The notes beneath the pieces are model-generated. The model was given only the letters and a program-made list of their open reading frames with translations. It made no database searches and was not told the origin of the DNA. This document shows, in pieces, positions 47,328-62,882 of a stretch of DNA of 64,000 nt (the stretch's first letter is position 1; the number at the start of each line of letters is the position of its first letter). Position numbers and translations under genes: made by a program. The DNA is from Escherichia coli. Its GTDB lineage: Bacteria > Pseudomonadota > Gammaproteobacteria > Enterobacterales > Enterobacteriaceae. The stretch lies in assembly GCF_044324785.1 (NCBI RefSeq), contig NZ_CP172127.1. One strand, given 5' to 3'.

Positions 47328-47403
47328 GCCCGGATAGCTCAGTCGGTAGAGCAGGGGATTGAAAATCCCCGTGTCCTTGGTTCGATTCCGAGTCCGGGCA
47401 CCA
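47328..47403 (+). tRNA. pheU: tRNA-Phe (GAA)
   Basis: gcccggatagctcagtcggtagagcaggggattgaaaatccccgtgtccttggttcgattccgagtccgggcacca, 76 nt with GAA anticodon; promoter-like ttgacg/tttaat upstream. Confidence 0.92.
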
Positions 47404-47579: not shown

Positions 47580-48764
47580 ATGGCACTTACAGCCAGACAG
47601 GTCGAAACAGCCAGACCTAAAGAAAAAGACTATAAACTCTCTGACGAACGTGGTTTATATCTGCTGGTAAAAACCACGGGTGCCCGCTACTGGCGGCTTA
47701 AATACCGGATAGCAGGAAAAGAGAAAAAACTGGCCCTCGGCGTCTATCCCGACGTCTCCCTTGCTGAAGCCAGAATCAAACGCGACGATGCCCGAAAAAT
47801 TATCTCCGAAGGTGGCGACCCGGGCGAAAAGAAGCGAAAGGAAAAACTCACTCAGAAAATCTCTGCCACCAATACGTTCCATGCCCTTGCTACGGAATGG
47901 CATCAGCATAAATCTTTGTCATGGTCTGAAAGTTACGCCAGAAGCGTACTGGAGGCTCTGGATAAAGATATTTTCCCGTATCTGGGCAAACGAAGCGTTA
48001 CTGATATCCTCCCGCTGGAAATGCTGGAAATTCTGCGCCGCATAGAAAAACGTGGCTCGCTGGAAAAACTTCGTAAGGTGCGTCAATACTGTAATCAGAT
48101 TTTTCGTTATGCCATCGCCACCGGACGAGCCACTGTCAATCCGGCATCTGAACTGACCAGTACGCTGGCGGCGCCAAAAGCTGCACATTTCCCCCACCTG
48201 AGAGCAGATGAGCTCCCTGTTTTTCTCCGGAAGCTCGCTGAATATCATGGCAGTCCTGTTACCCGCATGGCGACAAATCTGCTGCTTCTGACAGGCCTCA
48301 GAACGATTGAACTACGGTCCGCTGAATGGTCAGAAATTGATTTTGATAATGCCCTGTGGACAATCCCTGAAAGCCGCATGAAAATGCGACGTAAACATGT
48401 CGTACCACTGTCACGACAGGCCACTGACATTCTGCTGCAGCTCAAAACTTTCTCCGGACAATACCGGCTGGTTTTCCCGGGACGTTGTGATATCAACAAG
48501 CCAATGAGCGAAGCCAGCATCAATATGGTGCTCAAACGTATCGGTTACGATGGCAGGGCAACCGGTCATGGTTTTCGTCACACCATGAGTACCATTCTGC
48601 ACGAACAGGGCTTTAATTCTGCCTGGATTGAAATGCAGTTAGCTCATGTGGATAAAAATTCCATCAGGGGTACCTATAATCATGCCCTGTATCTCGATGG
48701 TCGCCGTGAAATGATGCAATGGTACGCTGACTACATTGATTCACTTTCCATCCAGGAGAGTTAA
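47580..48764 (+). CDS. P4-type tyrosine integrase adjacent to tRNA-Phe
   Basis: Start MALTARQVETARPKEKDYKLSDERGLYLLV with SD caggag upstream; catalytic R...HxxR...Y residues (HGFRHT, RGTYNHALY); N-terminal arm-binding-type domain. Confidence 0.88.
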   Translation: MALTARQVETARPKEKDYKLSDERGLYLLVKTTGARYWRLKYRIAGKEKKLALGVYPDVSLAEARIKRDDARKIISEGGDPGEKKRKEKLTQKISATNTFHALATEWHQHKSLSWSESYARSVLEALDKDIFPYLGKRSVTDILPLEMLEILRRIEKRGSLEKLRKVRQYCNQIFRYAIATGRATVNPASELTSTLAAPKAAHFPHLRADELPVFLRKLAEYHGSPVTRMATNLLLLTGLRTIELRSAEWSEIDFDNALWTIPESRMKMRRKHVVPLSRQATDILLQLKTFSGQYRLVFPGRCDINKPMSEASINMVLKRIGYDGRATGHGFRHTMSTILHEQGFNSAWIEMQLAHVDKNSIRGTYNHALYLDGRREMMQWYADYIDSLSIQES

Positions 48765-48849
48765 TTACACTTTGTCCTGAAATTATTCTCACAATCAATA
48801 ACCTTTCCCTCTGATCTTACAGATCAGAGGGATTCCGTTAACTTACAAT

Positions 48850-48889
48850 AAGTGATATTGGTTGTCTGGAGATTTAGGGGGACGGTCTA
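48850..48889. repeat. Solo IS2 left-end-like terminal repeat upstream of rafR
   Basis: aagtgatattggttgtctggagatttagggggacggtcta is near-identical to the terminal repeat of the complete IS2 at 58363-58402, in the same orientation. Confidence 0.5.
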
Positions 48890-48913
48890 CTATAATAATT
48901 AGCAGGAGATAAT

Positions 48914-49924
48914 ATGTCACTTAAGGCGATTGCCACTGCACTCGGAGTTTCTGTCACCACTGTCAGTCGGGCTCTTGGAGGCTATGCAGATGTGTCAGCT
49001 TCCACCCGTGCACGGGTGGAAGCTGAAGCTCGTCGACGCGGTTACCGTCCTAATACTCAGGCAAGAAGACTCAAAACCGGTAAAACCGATGCTGTCGGTC
49101 TGGTTTATCCTGGACGTGATGTGCCATTTAACAGTGGTGTTTTTATGGATATGGTCAGTTGCATCAGCCGGGAACTTGCTCACCATGATATTGACTTACT
49201 ACTGATAGCTGATGATGAGCATGCCGATTGCCACAGCTATATGCGGCTTGTTGAAAGTCGCAGGGTTGATGCTCTCATCATTGCACACACTCTGGATGAC
49301 GATCCCCGTATCACACACCTTCATAAAGCAGGTATTCCATTTCTGGCTCTTGGTCGGGTACCATCTGGTCTGCCCTGTGCGTGGTTTGACTTTGATAATC
49401 ATGCCGGGACTGGACAGGCAACCCAGAAACTGATTGCTTTGGGACATAAACGTATTGCATTGTTGAGTGAAGACACTTCACATAGCTATGTTGTTGCAAG
49501 ACGTCAGGGATGGCTTGATGCACTGAATGAGCATGAACTGGAAGATACATGGCTGCGGCTGGTTTCTCCCACACGGCGAGCAGGATATCAGGCCGTGATG
49601 GAGTTAATGTCACTACCGATACCACCAACAGCTATTATTACTGACAATGACCTGAGTGGAGATGGTGCTGCCATGGCACTGCAGTTGAGCGGTCGTCTTT
49701 CAGGAAAAGATGCGGTATCTCTGGTTGTATATGATGGTTTGCCACAGGACAGTATTATTGAGCTGGATGTGGCTGCAGTTATTCAGTCAACACGAAGCCT
49801 CGTTGGTCGCCAGATTTCCGAGATGATATATCAGATAATTACTGATTCATCATCAAAACCACTACAGGTTGTCTGGAACCCGGTATTTTATCCGGGAAAG
49901 ACGATTCATCCTCCTTGCTCCTGA
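48914..49924 (+). CDS. rafR: LacI-family raffinose operon repressor RafR
   Basis: N-terminal HTH (MSLKAIATALGVSVTTVSRALGG) plus periplasmic-binding-protein-like sugar domain; 336 aa; precedes rafA. Confidence 0.8.
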   Translation: MSLKAIATALGVSVTTVSRALGGYADVSASTRARVEAEARRRGYRPNTQARRLKTGKTDAVGLVYPGRDVPFNSGVFMDMVSCISRELAHHDIDLLLIADDEHADCHSYMRLVESRRVDALIIAHTLDDDPRITHLHKAGIPFLALGRVPSGLPCAWFDFDNHAGTGQATQKLIALGHKRIALLSEDTSHSYVVARRQGWLDALNEHELEDTWLRLVSPTRRAGYQAVMELMSLPIPPTAIITDNDLSGDGAAMALQLSGRLSGKDAVSLVVYDGLPQDSIIELDVAAVIQSTRSLVGRQISEMIYQIITDSSSKPLQVVWNPVFYPGKTIHPPCS

Positions 49925-49945
49925 TTTTTTTATCCAGCTCACATA

Positions 49946-49981
49946 TCCGAAACGTTTTGGTTGATACCCGAAACGTTTCGG
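49946..49981 (+). promoter_or_regulatory. Putative RafR operator pair flanking the rafA -35 box
   Basis: Near-palindrome tccgaaacgttttgg, then ttgata (-35-like), then the perfect palindrome ccgaaacgtttcgg, all in the rafR-rafA intergenic region. Confidence 0.55.
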
Positions 49982-50019
49982 ATCAACAGTAAGGCATCCC
50001 TGAGAAAGGAGAATGTCTT

Positions 50020-52146
50020 ATGGTTTCAAAGTACTGCAGACTGAGCAGTCCTCGCTCTGATTTAATTATTAAAACCCGTCCACATGCAGAAATTATCTGG
50101 TGGGGCTCTGCACTGAAACATTTCTCACCGGATGACTGTGCCAGCCTGGAAAGACCGGTTGCGAATGGTCGTCTGGATATTGATACGCCACTAACACTGA
50201 TGGCTGAAAATGCCCTGGGACTTTTTAGCTCTCCGGGACTGGAAGGACACAGGAATGGGCTGGATGCATCTCCTGTTTTTTATACAGTTGACGTGGAACA
50301 TACCGAAAACACTCTGAGACTTACCAGTGAAGATTCGGTAGCCGGCCTGCGTCTGGTCAGCGAGCTGGTGATGACGCCATCAGGAATTCTGAAAGTTCGT
50401 CATGCACTGACCAACCTCAGAGAGGGGGACTGGCAGATAAATCGTTTCGCCATCACTTTACCTTTAGCGGAACGTGCGGAAGAAGTCATGGCTTTTCACG
50501 GACGCTGGACTCGTGAATTTCAGCCGCACAGGGTACGTCTCACTCATGATGCTTTTGTTCTGGAAAATCGCAGAGGGCGGACATCTCATGAGCATTTTCC
50601 GGCGCTGATTGTCGGCACGCCAGGCTTCTCGGAACAACAGGGAGAGGTGTGGGCTGTGCATCTGGGGTGGAGTGGAAATCACCGCATGAGATGTGAGGCA
50701 AAAACTGACGGCAGGCGTTACGTTCAGGCTGAGGCTCTGTGGATGCCGGGTGAGAAGGCTCTCAGGAAGAATGAAACCCTGTACACCCCGTGGCTATATG
50801 CCTGCCACTCTGCGGATGGCCTGAATGGAATGAGTCAGCAATACCATCGTTTTTTGCGTGATGAAATTATCCGTTTCCCTGAGCAAAAACCCCGCCCTGT
50901 ACATCTCAATACCTGGGAAGGTATTTATTTCAATCACAATCCTGATTACATCATGCAGATGGCTGAGCGTGCAGCAGCACTGGGCGTTGAACGTTTCATT
51001 ATTGATGATGGCTGGTTTAAAGGACGTAACGATGACCGCGCGGCTCTGGGCGACTGGTATACCGATGAACAGAAATACCCGAACGGGCTGATGCCGGTTA
51101 TTAAACATGTGAAATCTCTCGGTATGGAATTTGGCATATGGGTTGAGCCGGAAATGATTAACCCGGATTCTGACCTGTTTCGTCTTCATCCTGACTGGGT
51201 ATTGTCAATGCCTGGATATTCCCAGCCAACCGGAAGATATCAGTATGTTCTTAACCTGAATATTCCAGAGGCCTTTGCTTACATTTATGAACGTTTCTTA
51301 TGGTTACTGGGAGAACATCCGGTTGATTATGTGAAATGGGACATGAATCGTGAGCTTGTACAGGCAGGGCATGAAGGCCGTGCGGCAGCAGATGCACAGA
51401 CCCGTCAGTTCTATCGATTGCTTGATCTCCTCCGTGAACGTTTTCCACATGTTGAGTTTGAGTCCTGTGCTTCCGGTGGGGGGCGTATTGACTTCGAAGT
51501 CCTGAAACGCACACACCGGTTCTGGGCATCTGACAATAATGATGCCCTGGAGCGCTGCACCATACAACGTGGCATGAGTTACTTTTTCCCTCCTGAGGTG
51601 ATGGGGGCGCATATTGGCCATCGCCGCTGCCATGCAACTTTCCGGCAGCACAGCATCGCTTTTCGTGGGCTGACGGCATTGTTCGGCCATATGGGGCTGG
51701 AGCTGGATCCGGTGGCCGCAGATGCGAAGGAATCTGACGGTTATCGCCGGTATGCCTTGCTCTATAAAGAATGGCGACAACTGATTCATACAGGAGTTCT
51801 CTGGCGTGTGGATATGCCAGATCCTTCGATACAGGTTCAGGGAGTCGTCAGCCCTGATCAGTCTCAGGCACTTTTTATGATCAGCCAGCTTGCAATGCCG
51901 GATTACACCTTACCAGGCATACTTCGTTTTCCCGGTCTGGCGGCGGAAGTGCGTTACCGGCTTCGGGTTATTGATCACCCGGACCTCCAGGTGGTTGGTG
52001 AAGGCGGTCATACCATGCGCAAATTACCTGTCTGGATGAATCAGAGCCTTGAGGCCAGTGGTGAATGGCTGGCACAGGGAGGGATTCAGCTCCCCGTACT
52101 GGATCCGGAGAGTGCGATTTTGATAGCACTTGAAAGAGCTGTGTGA
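50020..52146 (+). CDS. rafA: Alpha-galactosidase (GH36) RafA
   Basis: 708-aa ORF with GH36 architecture; SD aaaggag upstream; first gene of the rafABD cluster. Confidence 0.85.
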   Translation: MVSKYCRLSSPRSDLIIKTRPHAEIIWWGSALKHFSPDDCASLERPVANGRLDIDTPLTLMAENALGLFSSPGLEGHRNGLDASPVFYTVDVEHTENTLRLTSEDSVAGLRLVSELVMTPSGILKVRHALTNLREGDWQINRFAITLPLAERAEEVMAFHGRWTREFQPHRVRLTHDAFVLENRRGRTSHEHFPALIVGTPGFSEQQGEVWAVHLGWSGNHRMRCEAKTDGRRYVQAEALWMPGEKALRKNETLYTPWLYACHSADGLNGMSQQYHRFLRDEIIRFPEQKPRPVHLNTWEGIYFNHNPDYIMQMAERAAALGVERFIIDDGWFKGRNDDRAALGDWYTDEQKYPNGLMPVIKHVKSLGMEFGIWVEPEMINPDSDLFRLHPDWVLSMPGYSQPTGRYQYVLNLNIPEAFAYIYERFLWLLGEHPVDYVKWDMNRELVQAGHEGRAAADAQTRQFYRLLDLLRERFPHVEFESCASGGGRIDFEVLKRTHRFWASDNNDALERCTIQRGMSYFFPPEVMGAHIGHRRCHATFRQHSIAFRGLTALFGHMGLELDPVAADAKESDGYRRYALLYKEWRQLIHTGVLWRVDMPDPSIQVQGVVSPDQSQALFMISQLAMPDYTLPGILRFPGLAAEVRYRLRVIDHPDLQVVGEGGHTMRKLPVWMNQSLEASGEWLAQGGIQLPVLDPESAILIALERAV

Positions 52147-55110: not shown

Positions 55111-56505
55111 ATGAATAAGTTACTTTTGGGTTTATCTCTTTTTTTATTACTGGAATACAATGCGTGTGCAGCAAAAACAGGGGGGCTAACGCTTGAACAA
55201 AGAATGGCATTGCTGGAAGAACGCCTGGAAGCTGCAGAAAAAAGGGCGGAAAAAGCAGAAAGAATGTTAAAGAGTTTTGATATAGAACAACATTCTGAAA
55301 TACGTCAAATTAGTTCAGAGCAGAATAAAAAAGATGCTAACAGCTATGCAGTAGTTGAGTCAACAAAAGAAAAAACATCTTCTCCAGGTTTTCTGCTCTC
55401 TGGTTACAATGATTTGAAGTTTTATGGTGATGTGGAGTTTAATATAGATGCTGCCAGTAAACCCGGTCAGTTAGTAATGATAAGTTCCGGGGCGAACAGT
55501 GAGTCAGTGAATGAACGGTGGGACCTTAATGGCCGTATTCTATTAGGTTTTGACGGTACCCGTAAGCTTGATAATGGTTATTTCGCTGGATTTTCAGCAC
55601 AACCACTGGCGGATATGCACGGTTCAGTGAATATTGATGATGCATTATTCTTTTTTGGAAAAGATGACGAGTGGAAAGTGAAAGTCGGTCGTTTTGAAGC
55701 TTACGATATGTTCCCTCTAAATCAGGATACTTTCATTGAGTATTCCGGTAATACAGCTAATGATATTTATGCTGATGGCCGTGGTTATATCTATATGATG
55801 AAAGAGGGACGCGGTCGTTCTGACGCTGGTGGTAATTTCCTCATCAGTAAACAACTCGATAACTGGTATTTTGAGTTAAACACGTTACTTGAAGACGGAA
55901 CATCTTTATATAATAACGGTAATTATCATGGACGATATATGGAGCAGCAGAAAAATGTCGCTTATCTGCGCCCGGTAATTGCCTGGTCGCCAACGGAAGA
56001 ATTCACAGTCTCCGCAGCGATGGAAGCGAACGTGGTAAAAAATGCTTATGGCTATACCGATAATAAGGGGAATTTTGTCGATCAGTCCAATCGTTCCGGT
56101 TATGGTATTAGCATGACATGGAACGGTCTGAAAACAGATCCGGAAAATGGCATCGTGGTTACTCTTAATACCGCCTATTTGGATGCCAGTAATGAGAAAG
56201 ATTTCACTGCCAGTATTAATGCTCTGTGGAAACGTTTCGAACTGGGTTATATCTACGCACATAATAAGATTGATGAATTTAGTGGTGTCGTGTGTAATAA
56301 TGGTTGCTGGATTGATGGTGAAGGAATATACAACATTCACACCATTCATGCATCTTATCAGTTTGCTAATGTGATGGATATGGAGAACTTTAATATTTAC
56401 CTCGGGGCTTATTACTCAATTCTGGATAGTAACTGTAGATATAGTAATTGTGACATTACCGATGATCGTTACGGTGCCCGATTACGTTTCAAATACTTTT
56501 TTTGA
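55111..56505 (+). CDS. rafY: Raffinose glycoporin RafY
   Basis: 464-aa protein with signal peptide, N-terminal coiled-coil (LEERLEAAEKRAEKAERMLK) and beta-rich body ending in an aromatic residue (RFKYFF), typical of outer-membrane porins. Confidence 0.8.
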   Translation: MNKLLLGLSLFLLLEYNACAAKTGGLTLEQRMALLEERLEAAEKRAEKAERMLKSFDIEQHSEIRQISSEQNKKDANSYAVVESTKEKTSSPGFLLSGYNDLKFYGDVEFNIDAASKPGQLVMISSGANSESVNERWDLNGRILLGFDGTRKLDNGYFAGFSAQPLADMHGSVNIDDALFFFGKDDEWKVKVGRFEAYDMFPLNQDTFIEYSGNTANDIYADGRGYIYMMKEGRGRSDAGGNFLISKQLDNWYFELNTLLEDGTSLYNNGNYHGRYMEQQKNVAYLRPVIAWSPTEEFTVSAAMEANVVKNAYGYTDNKGNFVDQSNRSGYGISMTWNGLKTDPENGIVVTLNTAYLDASNEKDFTASINALWKRFELGYIYAHNKIDEFSGVVCNNGCWIDGEGIYNIHTIHASYQFANVMDMENFNIYLGAYYSILDSNCRYSNCDITDDRYGARLRFKYFF

Positions 56506-57005
56506 TGCATAGTAACAAAGTATTGTTCCACACTTACATTAACGCGTTTTTCGGGCGCGTCATCAGCGATGCATACGAATGATCGCAGTCTGCCAATGGT
56601 CGATTTATCTTGGTTGCGCAGGGGCGAGCACCGGGCAGGTACCGGCGGCTGACTCTGAAGCTCTGAGTCGGGTAATTGCGTCAGGTCACGAAGGACTGAC
56701 ACGGGTATTGGTGGCAGGTGATGAAGTACTGAGTGTGGTAATTTCGGGGATGCAATGCAGGAGCTGAGTCAGGTTTGCACTGAGCTGAGGACCCGTAGCG
56801 AGCGGGTTCCTGCTATTTTTCGGTGTCAGGGGCGCAAGTCCCGACGTCGGGACTTGCCGGGAGATTGTCAGGTCATTGACCGGGTGTGAGCGGCTCGACG
56901 TAAGCGGTAGATATGCCCAATTCCCCCCGATAAATTCATTACCAAACACATTATTCAATTTGTTTTTATTTTTCCGCTTTCAGTCATTATCGCTATCGCT
57001 TCGTC

Positions 57006-57071
57006 GGTAATGACTCCAACTTATTGATAGTGTTTTATGTTCAGATAATGCCCGATGACTTTGTCATGCAG
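57006..57071. mobile_element. IS1 terminal fragment (66 bp), truncated by the IS2 insertion
   Basis: ggtaatgactccaacttattgatagtgttttatgttcagataatgcccgatgactttgtcatgcag is identical to the first 66 bp of the complete IS1 at 59354; it abuts the IS2 end directly. Confidence 0.8.
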
Positions 57072-57082
57072 TGGATTTGCCC

Positions 57083-57988
57083 CTATATTTCCAGACACCT
57101 GTTATCACTTAACCCATTACTGGTCCGCTGCCGCAGATATTCCCGTGGCGAGCGATAACCCAGCGCACTATGCGGATGCCATTCGTTATAATGCTCGAAC
57201 GCCTCTGCAAGGTTCTTTGCTGCCGTTAACCCGTCTGGTTTGGGCATGATACTGATGTAGTCACGCTTTATCGTTTTCACGAAGCTCTCTGCTATTCCGT
57301 TACTCTCCGGACTCCGCACCGCCGTGTTCTTCGGTTCAAGTCCCAACATCCGGGCGAACTGGCGTGTTTCATTAGCCCGGTAGCATGAACCATTATCCGT
57401 CAGCCACTCCACTGGAGACGACGGAAGATCGTTGCCGAAGCGGCGTTCCACCGCTCCTGGCATGACGTCCTGTACTGTTTCACTGTTGAAGCCGCCGGTA
57501 GTGACCGCCCAGTGCAGTGCCTCACGATCACAGCAGTCCAGCGCGAACGTGACACGCAGTCTCTCTCCGTTATCACAGCAGAACTCGAACCCGTCAGAGC
57601 ACCATCGCTGATTGCTTTCTTTCACGGCCACTCTGCCAGTATGTGCCCGTTTCGATGGCGGTACAGCGGTTTTTCGCTCAAGCAACAGCGCATTCTGGCG
57701 CATGATCCGGTAAACACGTTTGGCATTGATCGCAGGCATACCATCAAGTTCGGCCTGTCTGCGAAGCAGCGCCCATACCCGACGATAACCATACGTGGGC
57801 AGCTCTCCGATAACATGGTGTATACGGAGAAGCACATCCGTATCATCTGAGTGACGGCTGCGGCGACCATCTTTCCAGTCATCGGTTCGTCTGAGAATTA
57901 CGTGCAACTGCGCACGCGACACCCGGAGACAACGGCTGACTAAGCTTACTCCCCATCCCCGGGCAATAAGGGCGCGTGCGCTATCCAC
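57083..57988 (-). CDS. insD: IS2 transposase OrfB (InsD)
   Basis: 301-aa DDE transposase [30 protein letters not shown]. Confidence 0.92.
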
Positions 57989-58311
57989 TTTTTTGCACGC
58001 CCGTATTCAACGGCTTCTTTAAGGAGTTCATTTTCCATCGTTTTTTTGCCGAGCAGGCGCTGGAGTTCTTTAATCTGCTTCATGGCAGCAGCAAGTTCAG
58101 AGGCAGGAACGACCTGCTCTCCTGCGGCCACAGCAGTAAGACTTCCCTCCTGGTATTGCTTGCGCCAGAGAAATAACTGGCTGGCTGCCACACCGTGTTG
58201 CCGGGCAACAAGGGAGACCGTCATTCCCGGTTCAAAACTCTGCTGAACAATAGCGATCTTTTCCTGTGTAGTACGCCGTCTGCGTTTCTCCGGTCCTAAG
58301 ACATCAATCAT
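57946..58311 (-). CDS. insC: IS2 OrfA (InsC)
   Basis: Start [43 protein letters not shown] protein; 3' end overlaps insD in the programmed frameshift arrangement. Confidence 0.9.
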
Positions 58312-58562
58312 CTGCTCTCCAATGACTAGTCTAAAAACTAGTATTAAGACTATCACTTATTTAAGTGATATTGGTTGTCTGGAGATTCATGGGGCCAGTC
58401 TAGCAGATTATGGTGCGCAGTTATACAACAGCAGTAATGAGGAGTCTACTATTTCTCTTGTTATGCCAGATGCAATTGAATGGAACGGAAAGAATACGCC
58501 AAGACGGCAATACATGATAAAATATATTGCCGTATTTAAATATTAAAATTTATTTTTGTAGA

Positions 58563-58952
58563 TCATCTGAATTTTCGGTGACCTTCAAGTTTTATATCGT
58601 TCATTTTATCCAGAGACTCACGTAATGATTCTATATTCCCGTCCTCAACTTTCTTTTTTGCAATATTGATTTCATGTTGTAGTTTTTTTAACTCTTCCTT
58701 ATAACTATCTACAGAAACTTTATCATTAACATCTATCTTTTCAGGAATAATATTCATAGAAGAATCTACAGATTTATCCATCATTTCAAGAGCATTTAAT
58801 AGTGATGATTTATCATTGGAAGATTGTAGAATACTCATACTTTTGGCAAGAGACTGCATGTTTTTATCCAGGCCGGAAGCCAAAGATACGTTGCTGAGAG
58901 ATAAAAAAATAGCTAGTACAGCACCTGAGAAAAATACCTTTTGTTTTTTCAT
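58563..58952 (-). CDS. Secreted cytochrome b562-like four-helix-bundle protein (divergent CybC homolog)
   Basis: Start MKKQKVFFSGAVLAIFLSLSNVSLA (signal peptide); mature region aligns with cytochrome b562 including the Met heme ligand (SGLDKNM vs ADLEDNM) and C-terminal His (LEGHRKFR vs NAYHQKYR). Confidence 0.6.
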   Translation of the reverse strand: MKKQKVFFSGAVLAIFLSLSNVSLASGLDKNMQSLAKSMSILQSSNDKSSLLNALEMMDKSVDSSMNIIPEKIDVNDKVSVDSYKEELKKLQHEINIAKKKVEDGNIESLRESLDKMNDIKLEGHRKFR

Positions 58953-59368
58953 TAATATATTCCTGTTCAAAGTTGATTATAGTTATGTCAATTTAAGTTT
59001 ATTATTATGATTTTTTATTTTTGTACTATGAATCTCCTGTATGCTTATATGTGCAGAAAATCTCATTTTATCAAGAAGAATATCAAATTTTCTCCGATAC
59101 TTCTACATACTCCATCATTCATGCTCCTTTTATCCGTGCACCGTAAAACCCCGTCCTTCAGCGGGGGATATAAGGCGCTGTTTTCCACCTAACCAGGTGT
59201 CTGCTGCTATTCAATGTATTGGCGGATGACGGATGCCGCCCGTTGAAGCAGGACCCCTCGTCCTTAGGGCGTGGAGGATGTCAAAATGAAAACTTGTGGT
59301 ATGAATCAATCCATTCATCATCCTTTCGGATCATTGCATTCAGTATAACGCTGGGTAATGACTCCAAC

Positions 59369-59872
59369 TTATTGATAGTGTTTTATGTTCAGATAATGCC
59401 CGATGACTTTGTCATGCAGCTCCACCGATTTTGAGAACGACAGCGACTTCCGTCCCAGCCGTGCCAGGTGCTGCCTCAGATTCAGGTTATGCCGCTCAAT
59501 TCGCTGCGTATATCGCTTGCTGATTACGTGCAGCTTTCCCTTCAGGCGGGATTCATACAGCGGCCAGCCATCCGTCATCCATATCACCACGTCAAAGGGT
59601 GACAGCAGGCTCATAAGACGCCCCAGCGTCGCCATAGTGCGTTCACCGAATACGTGCGCAACAACCGTCTTCCGGAGACTGTCATACGCGTAAAACAGCC
59701 AGCGCTGGCGCGATTTAGCCCCGACATAGCCCCACTGTTCGTCCATTTCCGCGCAGACGATGACGTCACTGCCCGGCTGTATGCGCGAGGTTACCGACTG
59801 CGGCCTGAGTTTTTTAAGTGACGTAAAATCGTGTTGAGGCCAACGCCCATAATGCGTGCACTGGCACGACAT
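59369..59872 (-). CDS. insB: IS1 InsB
   Basis: 167 aa, [37 protein letters not shown]. Confidence 0.92.
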
Positions 59873-60066
59873 CCGACGCCATTCATGGCCATATCAATGA
59901 TTTTCTGGTGCGTACCGGGTTGAGAGGCGGTGTAAGTGAACTGTAGTTGCCATGTTTTACGGCAATGAGAGCAGAGATAGCGCTGATGTCCGGCAGTGCT
60001 TTTGCCGTTACGCACCACGCCTTCAGGAGCGGAGCAGGAAGGACATCTGATGGAAATGGAAGCCAC
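59791..60066 (-). CDS. insA: IS1 InsA
   Basis: 91 aa, [40 protein letters not shown]. Confidence 0.92.
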
Positions 60067-60329
60067 GCAAGCACCTTAAAATCACCATCATACACTAAAT
60101 CAGTAAGTTGGCACCATTACCTGACCAAGCTTCCTCTATTGCGGCACCTGATTGCATCAATATCGAAAGTGATAAGATCCTCTCACTAGCAGGGCATGAC
60201 AAGTGTAACTGCTGATTTGTTAGCCTGTTTTAAGTTTTTTAAGATCAATTATTTCTCATTTTTTGACTTTATTGCTAGCCGTGAAAATGCAAAGCCTATA
60301 GGATACAAAAATTACAATTTGTAGGTTTT

Positions 60330-60836
60330 GTGAGTCATATGAAGGCAACCAATATAGACCCTCAACTGCTTGAAAAAGCCACGAGTATCTTTGCTGAGTT
60401 GGGCTTACCTATTGAGCAGGCTATTAACGTCTTTTTAGCTAAATCCGTTCAAGCCAAAGGTTTTCCGTTTTCTGTTGCTCTTGAAAATGAAGTAGAGACA
60501 CGGGAAGTTGCACAAACGCAACACAATATCAGCAATGCAGAGATAACCGAAGCTATCCAAGACTTGGTTGAACATGCTCTACCACTGAGTGAAATAGAAA
60601 ACCTCACGCAGCTAACCTATTGTCGCAACATTTTTGGGTTGTCATTCCCCGTGCTCAAACTGGCTAAATCATCACGGCCAGAAGACATTCGCAGTGCAGC
60701 CAAAGATGCCAAAGAGCGAAACCGCTACTCCACCACTAAAGTGGCCCAGCGAGATGAAAAAACCTATGTTATTTGCACCCAATGGACCGACAGACATCGT
60801 TCTGCATTTTGCCGTTGGCAAGCCATCTTTAGCTAG
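60330..60836 (+). CDS. RelB/DinJ-like ribbon-helix-helix protein with an uncharacterised C-terminal extension
   Basis: N-terminal 50 aa (KATNIDPQLLEKATSIFAELGLPIEQAINVFLAKSVQAKGFPFSV) follow the DinJ pattern; the remaining 110 aa or so are unassigned; alternative ATG start at 60339; AT-rich; no toxin gene adjacent. Confidence 0.5.
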   Translation: MSHMKATNIDPQLLEKATSIFAELGLPIEQAINVFLAKSVQAKGFPFSVALENEVETREVAQTQHNISNAEITEAIQDLVEHALPLSEIENLTQLTYCRNIFGLSFPVLKLAKSSRPEDIRSAAKDAKERNRYSTTKVAQRDEKTYVICTQWTDRHRSAFCRWQAIFS

Positions 60837-60902
60837 AACGCAAAATAATAACCAAACAATACACTGATTTTTTAACGATTTAACTTCATTTAGGTAGTAT
60901 CA

Positions 60903-62882
60903 ATGAACTTACAAGACAAAGAACAAAGCGCCAAACTCTCCAGTGCTATTTGGCGTATGGCAGATGATTTATGGGGTGATTTCAAACACACCGATTTTGC
61001 GCGGATTATCCTGCCATTTTTGCTACTGCGTCGTATTGAATGCGTGTTAGAACCCACCCGTGAGGAAGTTCGTAAGTTCTATCTGGCCGAAAAACAATCC
61101 GGCATAGACCTTGGTTTAGTGTTGCCAGAAATTGCGGGATTCGCCTTTTACAACACCAGTGAATATAGCCTAGAAACCTTAGGCGCGTCAGACACCGGCG
61201 ACAACCTAGAACACTACATCAGCCAGTTCAGCAAAAACGTTCGTACCATCTTTGATGAGTTTAAATTTGGTCAAACCATAGAAGATCTGGAAAAAGCCAA
61301 GTTGCTGTATCGCATGGTAAACCATTTTGCCAACCTCGACTTGCATCCTGATGTAGTGTCTGACCGCGTATTATCAGATGCTTATGAAGAGCTGATTCTA
61401 AAGTTCGCCAGTTCGGTTAATGAAAAGGCCGGGGAATTTATGACCCCGCGTGATGCCGTGCGTCTTGCCACCAAACTGGTGCTGGCGGCGGATGAAGATA
61501 TCTTTAGTGAAAAGGGTGTGATCCGCACCATCTATGACCCAACCTGTGGCACGGGCGGTTTCCTTTCCGATGCCATTAGCCAAATTGAAGAAATGGGCAG
61601 CAGCGCTAAAGTCGTGCCTTTTGGTCAAGAGCTCGACCCCGCGACCCATGCCATGGCGCTGACCAATATGATGATCCGCGGTTTTGATGCCAATAACATC
61701 AAGCAAGGCAACACCTTATCAGACGATCAGTTACGTGCCGACAAGTTTCACTACGGCCTTGCCAACCCGCCATTTGGCATTAAGTGGGAAAAAGCCAAGA
61801 AAGAAGTAGAACGTGAGCACAAACAGCTCAAATACGCCGGACGCTTTGGGCCAGGCCTGCCGAGTATTTCTGATGGTTCAATGCTGTTTTTACTGCACTT
61901 GGTATCAAAAATGGAAACGCCGGAAAATGGTGGTGGCCGAGTGGGTATAGTCCTTTCTGGCTCGCCACTGTTTAATGGCGATGCAGGCTCAGGCCCATCA
62001 GAAATCCGCCGTTGGCTGCTAGAACAAGACTTAGTCGAAGCGATTGTTGCCCTGCCAACCGATATGTTCTTCAACACCGGCATTGGCACCTACATCTGGA
62101 TTTTGACTAACCATAAAGAGCCAAGACGCAAGAATCAGGTGCAACTGATTAACTTGGCAGATATTTGGACTCCCATGCGTAAATCGCAAGGCGATAAGCG
62201 CAAGTACCTGAGTGATGAACAGATTGACGATATTGTCCGTGCGTACGATGGCTTTGAAGCCAGTGACAACTGTAAGATCTTCCAGACTACTGATTTTGCC
62301 TACCGTAAAGTCACCATTCAGCGTCCACTGCGTGCCAAACTAGATATTACCGCTGCGGGCATTGCTGCATTTGTGCAGCAAGATACGTTTAAAAAACTCA
62401 AACCAGAGCAACAAGCGGCATGGGTACAATACCTCACCGATAACCTTGGCCTTCAGCCTTATGAATGGGCACGTTTGGCGGTTAAGAAGAATAACAATAA
62501 GGGTGACTTTGGTAAGTGCTCAAAAGCACTGGCTACGGCCTTAACTGCGCACTTTGTAAAAATTGATCCGCAATTTGAGCCTGCACTGGATGAAAAAGGC
62601 CAAGTGATCGCCGACCCTAAACTCAAAGACACCGAAAGCATTCCTTTTGACCGCGACGTTGAAGATTACTTCGCACAAGAGGTGCTGCCACATGTACCGG
62701 ATGCCTTTATTGATCACTCAGTGCGTGATGAAAAAGACGGCGAAGTGGGCATTGTCGGTTATGAAATTAACTTTAACCGCTATTTCTACCAATACGTGCC
62801 ACCACGCGAGTTGAGTGTGATTGATCGTGAGCTAAAAGCATGTGAAGCGCGCATTCAGGCTCTGCTGAATGAGGTGGCGTAA
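60903..62882 (+). CDS. hsdM: Type I restriction-modification N6-adenine DNA methyltransferase subunit HsdM
   Basis: 659 aa with AdoMet motif YDPTCGTGGFL and catalytic NPPFG; stop overlaps the hsdS start (TAATG). Confidence 0.88.
   Translation: MNLQDKEQSAKLSSAIWRMADDLWGDFKHTDFARIILPFLLLRRIECVLEPTREEVRKFYLAEKQSGIDLGLVLPEIAGFAFYNTSEYSLETLGASDTGDNLEHYISQFSKNVRTIFDEFKFGQTIEDLEKAKLLYRMVNHFANLDLHPDVVSDRVLSDAYEELILKFASSVNEKAGEFMTPRDAVRLATKLVLAADEDIFSEKGVIRTIYDPTCGTGGFLSDAISQIEEMGSSAKVVPFGQELDPATHAMALTNMMIRGFDANNIKQGNTLSDDQLRADKFHYGLANPPFGIKWEKAKKEVEREHKQLKYAGRFGPGLPSISDGSMLFLLHLVSKMETPENGGGRVGIVLSGSPLFNGDAGSGPSEIRRWLLEQDLVEAIVALPTDMFFNTGIGTYIWILTNHKEPRRKNQVQLINLADIWTPMRKSQGDKRKYLSDEQIDDIVRAYDGFEASDNCKIFQTTDFAYRKVTIQRPLRAKLDITAAGIAAFVQQDTFKKLKPEQQAAWVQYLTDNLGLQPYEWARLAVKKNNNKGDFGKCSKALATALTAHFVKIDPQFEPALDEKGQVIADPKLKDTESIPFDRDVEDYFAQEVLPHVPDAFIDHSVRDEKDGEVGIVGYEINFNRYFYQYVPPRELSVIDRELKACEARIQALLNEVA

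Follow-up and report, generated by a model that had tools for sequence, protein, structure and literature searches.

Predicted RafR operators at the rafA promoter of a chromosomal raf island in Escherichia coli, and a conserved hairpin in the rafA leader

The DNA analyzed here, referred to as the window, is a stretch of 64,000 nucleotides from the E. coli contig NZ_CP172127.1 (RefSeq assembly GCF_044324785.1). It contains a raf gene cluster that lies on an island next to a tRNA-Phe gene, in the chromosomal order dsbD-dicD-tRNA-Phe-integrase-rafR (Table 1). All five Raf proteins are full length and 98.7-99.6% identical to the copies on plasmid pIP1206 (RafR 332 of 336 residues, RafA 705 of 708, RafB 421 of 425, RafD 470 of 476, and RafY 460 of 464), and the 95-bp spacer between rafR and rafA is 100% identical to that of the plasmid (NC_010558 = AM886293). 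In UniRef, the exact RafR sequence carries the name 'HTH-type transcriptional regulator RafR', and no NCBIfam model reached its cut-off for RafR or RafA. Most RefSeq records call the intact RafR, HTH included, a 'substrate-binding domain-containing protein' and not a LacI-family regulator. A study from 2026 likewise took its RafR from pIP1206 (AM886293); it refers to the classical papers on the operators and names melibiose as the RafR ligand (PMC13056197).

Of 5426 complete E. coli genomes, 282 have the same junction of the tRNA-Phe island with raf, and many of these are from poultry; the raf region is also present on at least 180 plasmids, mostly conjugative IncF plasmids. When an attR copy was sought in the window, no repeat of the 3' end of tRNA-Phe of 12 nt or longer was detected. 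The gap between the integrase gene and rafR holds a perfect 10-bp inverted repeat at 48807-48831 (CCCTCTGATC ttaca GATCAGAGGG) with no T-run on its 3' side. The region 3' of rafY (56506-62882) contains IS3-family orfA/orfB on the minus strand (57083-58356), a cytochrome b562 gene (58563-58970), an IS1 transposase, a RelB-like ORF, and the type I methylase gene hsdM (60903-62882); the closest annotated genome is collinear with the window only as far as 57364.

Table 1. Positions of the raf genes and of the observed and predicted control elements, in window coordinates.
Feature	Coordinates	Strand	Evidence or sequence
tRNA-Phe (GAA), island integration site	47328-47403	+	ARAGORN
P4-type tyrosine integrase of the island	47580-48764	+	NCBIfam PRK09692 integrase domain; annotated in RefSeq relatives
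Candidate rafR promoter, TGGAGA-18-TATAAT	48867-48896	+	Consensus scan 10/12; perfect TATAAT
rafR, LacI-family repressor, 336 aa	48914-49924	+	Pfam LacI HTH and Peripla_BP_1; stop TGA 49922-49924
CRP-like site, 22-mer (putative CAP site)	49925-49946		Left half TTTTA 49928-49932, weak; right half TCACA 49939-49943, perfect; centre 49935.5
Operator O1 (predicted)	49947-49960		CCGAAACGTTTTGG, 14-mer with one non-symmetric pair; 18-bp form 49945-49962, ATCCGAAACGTTTTGGTT
-35 hexamer TTGATA of the rafA promoter (most likely)	49961-49966	+	5/6 versus TTGACA; 18 bp before the nAnnnT -10
Operator O2 (predicted)	49968-49981		CCGAAACGTTTCGG, perfect 14-bp palindrome; 18-bp form 49966-49983, ACCCGAAACGTTTCGGAT
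Candidate -10 hexamer AACAGT	49985-49990	+	3/6 positions match; three bases after O2; predicted start about 49996-49998
Leader hairpin (predicted)	49989-50021	+	5' arm 49989-50001, loop 50002-50006, 3' arm 50007-50021
rafA, GH36 alpha-galactosidase, 708 aa	50020-52146	+	Pfam Melibiase, GH36N, GH36C
rafB, LacY-type raffinose permease, 425 aa	52209-53486	+	Pfam LacY_symp
rafD, GH32 sucrose hydrolase/invertase, 476 aa	53486-54916	+	Pfam GH32 N and C domains
rafY, glycoporin, 464 aa	55111-56505	+	Pfam Porin_8 'glycoporin RafY'

The first-pass annotation had described two near-identical palindromes flanking a ttgata hexamer, and the sequence bears this out: O1, TTGATA, and O2 follow one another within cacatatCCGAAACGTTTTGGTTGATAcCCGAAACGTTTCGGatcaacag (49940-49989). 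O1 and O2 are identical at 13 of 14 positions, and their starts are 21 bp apart. A repeat finder reported them both as a direct repeat of 18 nt (89% identical, 21-bp spacing) and as an inverted pair of 16 nt (94% complementary) with arms at 49945-49960 and 49968-49983. The half-sites fit the LacI/GalR operator type, CCGAAAC|GTTTCGG, with a central CG and an AAACGTTT core. The pair is located 22 nt 3' of the rafR stop and 39 nt 5' of the rafA ATG. The same annotation had placed it directly after the rafR stop, at 49946-49981; O1 does lie 3' of the stop and the end of that span is the end of O2, but the intervening 22 nt contain the CRP-like site, and the span started one base before O1.

A scan of the 64 kb for CCGAAACGTTTCGG with up to two mismatches gave three matches (O1, O2, and position 952) against 0.31 expected, a number reached in 0 of 100 shuffles. 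Near-palindromic 14-mers as such are common, with 90 in the window against about 86 expected, which is the chance level and the one point in favor of regarding the twin palindromes as a functionless chance repeat. However, similar near-palindromic 14-mers no more than 40 bp apart occur as a single pair in the window and as none in 30 shuffles. This pair and the excess of motif matches speak against chance, as does the conservation described below, and we assign the chance reading a negligible probability. The match at 952-965 (CCGAAACGTTCAGG, two mismatches) lies within an ORF on the minus strand (905-1636); it was judged to be a chance match, as were two operator-like sequences with three mismatches each, at 48531 in the integrase gene and at 56227 in rafY. 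The operator scan found no RafR-like site with up to two mismatches 5' of rafR, thus giving no sign of autoregulation.

By its position, TTGATA is most likely the -35 hexamer of rafA, which is reportedly also its assignment in the primary raf papers. It is poorly conserved in the relatives, most of which carry TTGnnA or TTTGTA. At the -10 offset, AACAGT or AACACT was found in 67 of 76 unique relatives, and the form nAnnnT in all but one. A strict sigma-70 scan of 49700-50200 detected no promoter, which we attribute to the weak -10, a feature that would fit a promoter dependent on CRP; the transcription start of rafA given in Table 1 is predicted from spacing. No terminator on the plus strand was found between rafR and rafA by the terminator scan. 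Upstream of O1, the sequence GATCAC occupies positions -10 to -5 from the operator in 76 of 76 unique relatives, and these positions lie outside the search pattern with which the relatives were collected. The left half of the CRP-like site is TTTTA in the window and TCTGA or CCTGA in many relatives. By this pattern, the 22-mer is a putative CAP site; its class I geometry would agree with that reported for the CAP site of the classical system.

For the comparison across genera, RafR homologues of 55-89% identity were collected by protein search, and the operator played no part in the retrieval of their loci. These 12 protein-selected loci include the window itself and pIP1206, and they sample two diverged E. 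coli plasmid types, a K. quasipneumoniae plasmid, Cronobacter, Lelliottia, Pluralibacter, Pantoea, Providencia, Kluyvera, Dickeya, and an Enterovibrio MAG. The order rafR-rafA-rafB was the same in all 12, and each rafR-rafA spacer contained two sites, spaced by exactly 21 bp, with at most one mismatch to CCGAAACGTTTCGG. When the spacers were aligned, the sequence was conserved from GATCACA through both sites to ATCAACAGTAAG, and further upstream it was not; this retention of sites and spacing in different genera, against a divergent upstream sequence, refutes chance.

The RafR residues that are expected to read the DNA are equally constant. The recognition helix SVTTVSRAL is invariant among homologues down to 55% overall identity, and so is the hinge YRPNTxARRLK (YRPNTQARRLK in the window), including its leucine, which by the CcpA/LacI rule pairs with the central CG of the operator (PMC2329647). 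Enterobacterial RafR has been described with double sites only, 21-22 bp apart, and this was read as obligatory cooperative binding (PMC4052901). Throughout the Enterobacterales of the comparative set, both sites and their 21-bp spacing are rigidly kept, as are the CRP-like half-site and the DNA-reading residues of RafR. When species-representative genomes were scanned with RafR peptides, only distant LacI homologues of 27-31% identity were found.

A metagenome scan with the twin-site pattern brought the total to 119 twin-site loci, and 102 of these have an adjacent rafR on the upstream side and an adjacent rafA on the downstream side, with the two genes co-directional. In the resulting set of 76 sequences the operator columns carry no weight, since it was the operator pattern that served to retrieve the metagenome loci, and their invariance is partly circular. 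Two metagenome contigs (L026 and L054) show a different regulon architecture with the same operator pair: a RafR-like gene (51% identity) is divergent from twin RafR-type sites (4487-4521 in L026), which precede a gene other than rafA that runs off the contig. At a further locus (L024, 4639-4673), twin CCGAAACGTTTCG sites with the same spacing stand in an unrelated context, lacking both TCAC and ATCAAC, and the nearest LacI homologue there shares just 27% identity with RafR.

The AAACGTTT core is common to other LacI-family boxes, such as the PurR box. O1 and O2 might for this reason be bound by another LacI-family regulator of the host, for example one like PurR or CytR, with RafR acting elsewhere, and the description of the RafR site as deviating from the canonical backbone of the TVSR group (PMC2978694) also counts on that side. 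However, the twin sites accompany rafR on plasmids and islands and in many genera, and for this reason another LacI-family protein is unlikely as their ligand. The DNA-binding residues of RafR and the sites are conserved together, and the motif is otherwise absent from the 64-kb window, apart from the one two-mismatch match inside a gene. We regard binding by another regulator in place of RafR as very improbable.

The inverted relationship of the two sites allows a second alternative, in which O1 and O2 act as RNA, forming a 16-bp stem-loop after the rafR stop that terminates the rafR mRNA or stabilizes its 3' end, and are not DNA bound by a protein. The stem formed by the complementary arms dominates the predicted fold of the spacer RNA (-35.2 kcal/mol for the whole spacer, z-score -5.6), and in the E. 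coli plasmid pLH10-b-1-A two substitutions keep O1 complementary to O2. However, such complementarity is the automatic result of two similar palindromes, each of O1 and O2 is palindromic alone with the central CG typical of LacI-family operators, and in the Enterovibrio variant O2 has changed without a compensating change in O1. The stem is followed by CAACAGTAAGG, without a T-run, and the plus-strand scan likewise found no terminator, so the reading as an intrinsic (Rho-independent) terminator was rejected for want of the T-run. An RNA role may coexist with the operator role but cannot replace it, and as a substitute for protein binding we consider it highly unlikely.

Two raf copies on E. 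coli plasmids have altered control regions. On NZ_CP070230.1, at about 1690-1750, O1 and O2 are fused into the single site TCACATATCCGAAACGTTTCGGATCAACAG by an exact 21-bp deletion that has removed the -35 hexamer; rafR is split into fragments there, and rafA is truncated by IS1414. On pLH10-b-1-A (locus 1673-1771), the substitutions are mirrored, giving CCGAATCGTTTCGG as O1 and its exact reverse complement CCGAAACGATTCGG as O2, with CCGAATC as the outer half-site of both; each site is less palindromic, and the pair is still symmetric about the -35. The first-pass annotation had held the operon of the window to be functional rather than decayed. As far as the sequence can tell, this is supported by the five full-length genes, for which the NZ_CP070230.1 copy provides the decayed contrast. 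The strain is probably an inducible raffinose/melibiose user, although the operators by themselves are no proof of induction.

We consider it very likely that the twin palindromes are rafO1 and rafO2, the predicted binding sites, at the rafA promoter, of the RafR protein encoded next to them. The arrangement had been recognized from the letters as the classic one for RafR-mediated repression, and the flanking rafR and rafA genes, the spacer identity to pIP1206, and the twin sites in all 12 protein-selected loci support that recognition. By its sequence, the pair in the window is the already known raf control region, here as a chromosomal island copy, and this copy appears to keep the control region of the classic plasmid system complete and unaltered, its match to the published O1/O2 being indirect.

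The proposed mechanism takes RafR binding, the identity of the inducer, the transcription start, and the role of CRP from the literature or from what we infer here. One RafR dimer would bind to each site, and with two helical turns (21 bp) between the centres, both dimers would sit on one side of the helix. With transcription starting near 49996, O1 would lie at about -42.5 and O2 at about -21.5, and the two dimers would cover the -35 and the spacer of the weak CRP-dependent rafA promoter, thereby excluding RNA polymerase. The CRP site, abutting O1, would be centred at about -60.5, in class I geometry. An alpha-galactoside inducer, melibiose in the literature, would free RafR from the operators, and cAMP-CRP would then activate the transcription of rafA-rafB-rafD.

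The twin operators themselves offer no novel reading, and it is only the hairpin in the rafA leader that could teach something new. In the minimum free energy fold, its 3' arm takes in the Shine-Dalgarno sequence GGAG (50008-50011) and extends to the second base of the start codon. An out-of-frame ATG (50013-50015) stands directly after the Shine-Dalgarno sequence, 7 nt 5' of the rafA start, and GGAGATG, which is part of the 3' arm, is conserved in the relatives. The two arms change together among the relatives: they read TAAAAGCAT/ATGCTTTTA in Cronobacter, CAGATATC/GATATCTG in locus L080, GGGCAT/ATGCCC in Pluralibacter, GGACAT/ATGTCC in Lelliottia, and CCTCATC/GATGAGG in Dickeya. In a covariance-model alignment of 42 distinct sequences, an alignment that is fitted to the model, 88.9% of the cells were paired and 5 of 11 pairs had changes on both sides. 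The covariation score was reached in 0 of 500 shuffles, and slid pairings were 27-52% paired. In single-sequence folds, the diverged leaders each formed the same hairpin topology alone. RNAalifold on the MAFFT alignment of the leaders gave almost no structure (-0.75 kcal/mol), because MAFFT misaligned these sequences with indels.

The 5' arm of the hairpin directly follows the -10 in every relative examined, and a start about 7 nt downstream of the -10 therefore falls within this arm. With the 5' arm thus placed between the -10 and the predicted start, only transcripts reading through from rafR, which is constitutively expressed, would form the hairpin, and in these it would hide the Shine-Dalgarno sequence and the start codon of rafA, and transcripts from the raf promoter, which would lack the 5' arm, would be translated. 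The mean predicted folding energy of the leader was -12.7 kcal/mol in read-through transcripts against -4.6 kcal/mol in those from the predicted start, and the unpaired probability of the ribosome-binding region was 0.25 against 0.49. We tentatively propose, as one possibility that we hold to be rather less than even, that the hairpin is a fold-back insulator which silences the translation of rafA in read-through transcripts from rafR, the start being a predicted one. A lineage with a weakened stem (L087/L106) argues against this, and so does L026, where the genes are divergent and the arms are complementary although read-through from the regulator gene is impossible. If the proposal is true, a translational layer would keep the operon tight despite a co-directional repressor gene only 95 bp upstream. 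If it is confirmed, the hairpin would represent a catabolic operon shielding itself from the read-through of its own regulator gene, the sole potentially new point of this locus.

The operators O1 and O2 of raf, the promoter, and the CAP site were reportedly defined in primary studies published between 1990 and 1999. The control region of the E. coli raffinose plasmids (pRSD2) reportedly likewise has two near-identical palindromes flanking the -35, together with a CAP site abutting O1 to which the CRP-like site of the window would correspond, and the window has the same rafR-rafA-rafB-rafD-rafY order. Unlike in the raffinose plasmids, the copy in the window is chromosomal, on a tRNA-Phe island that has a P4-type integrase, and not on a conjugative plasmid, and its RafR has four amino-acid differences from that of pIP1206. 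For comparison, IS10 and IS50 are reported to inhibit the translation of their transposases in read-through transcripts by fold-back. There, as proposed for raf, the 5' arm lies upstream of the gene's own start, and the ribosome-binding site is hidden only in transcripts from outside; in IS10/IS50 the transcription enters from foreign DNA, whereas in raf it would come from the operon's own regulator gene, with a start that is predicted only. The operators that LacI, GalR, and PurR recognize at lac, gal, and pur are, like O1 and O2, palindromes with a central CG; a dimeric repressor with an HTH and a leucine in its hinge helix binds them, and in these systems, as proposed for raf, a CRP-assisted promoter is sterically blocked and the block is relieved by the sugar. 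The raf half-site CCGAAAC has C rather than T at -6, unlike those of lac, gal, and pur, and the two raf sites stand side by side on one face of the helix, with the -35 between them, whereas lac and gal use distant auxiliary operators joined by looping. The RafR regulog of Enterobacterales consists of double sites only, 21-22 bp apart and upstream of rafA (PMC4052901), and the window adds one more member to it.
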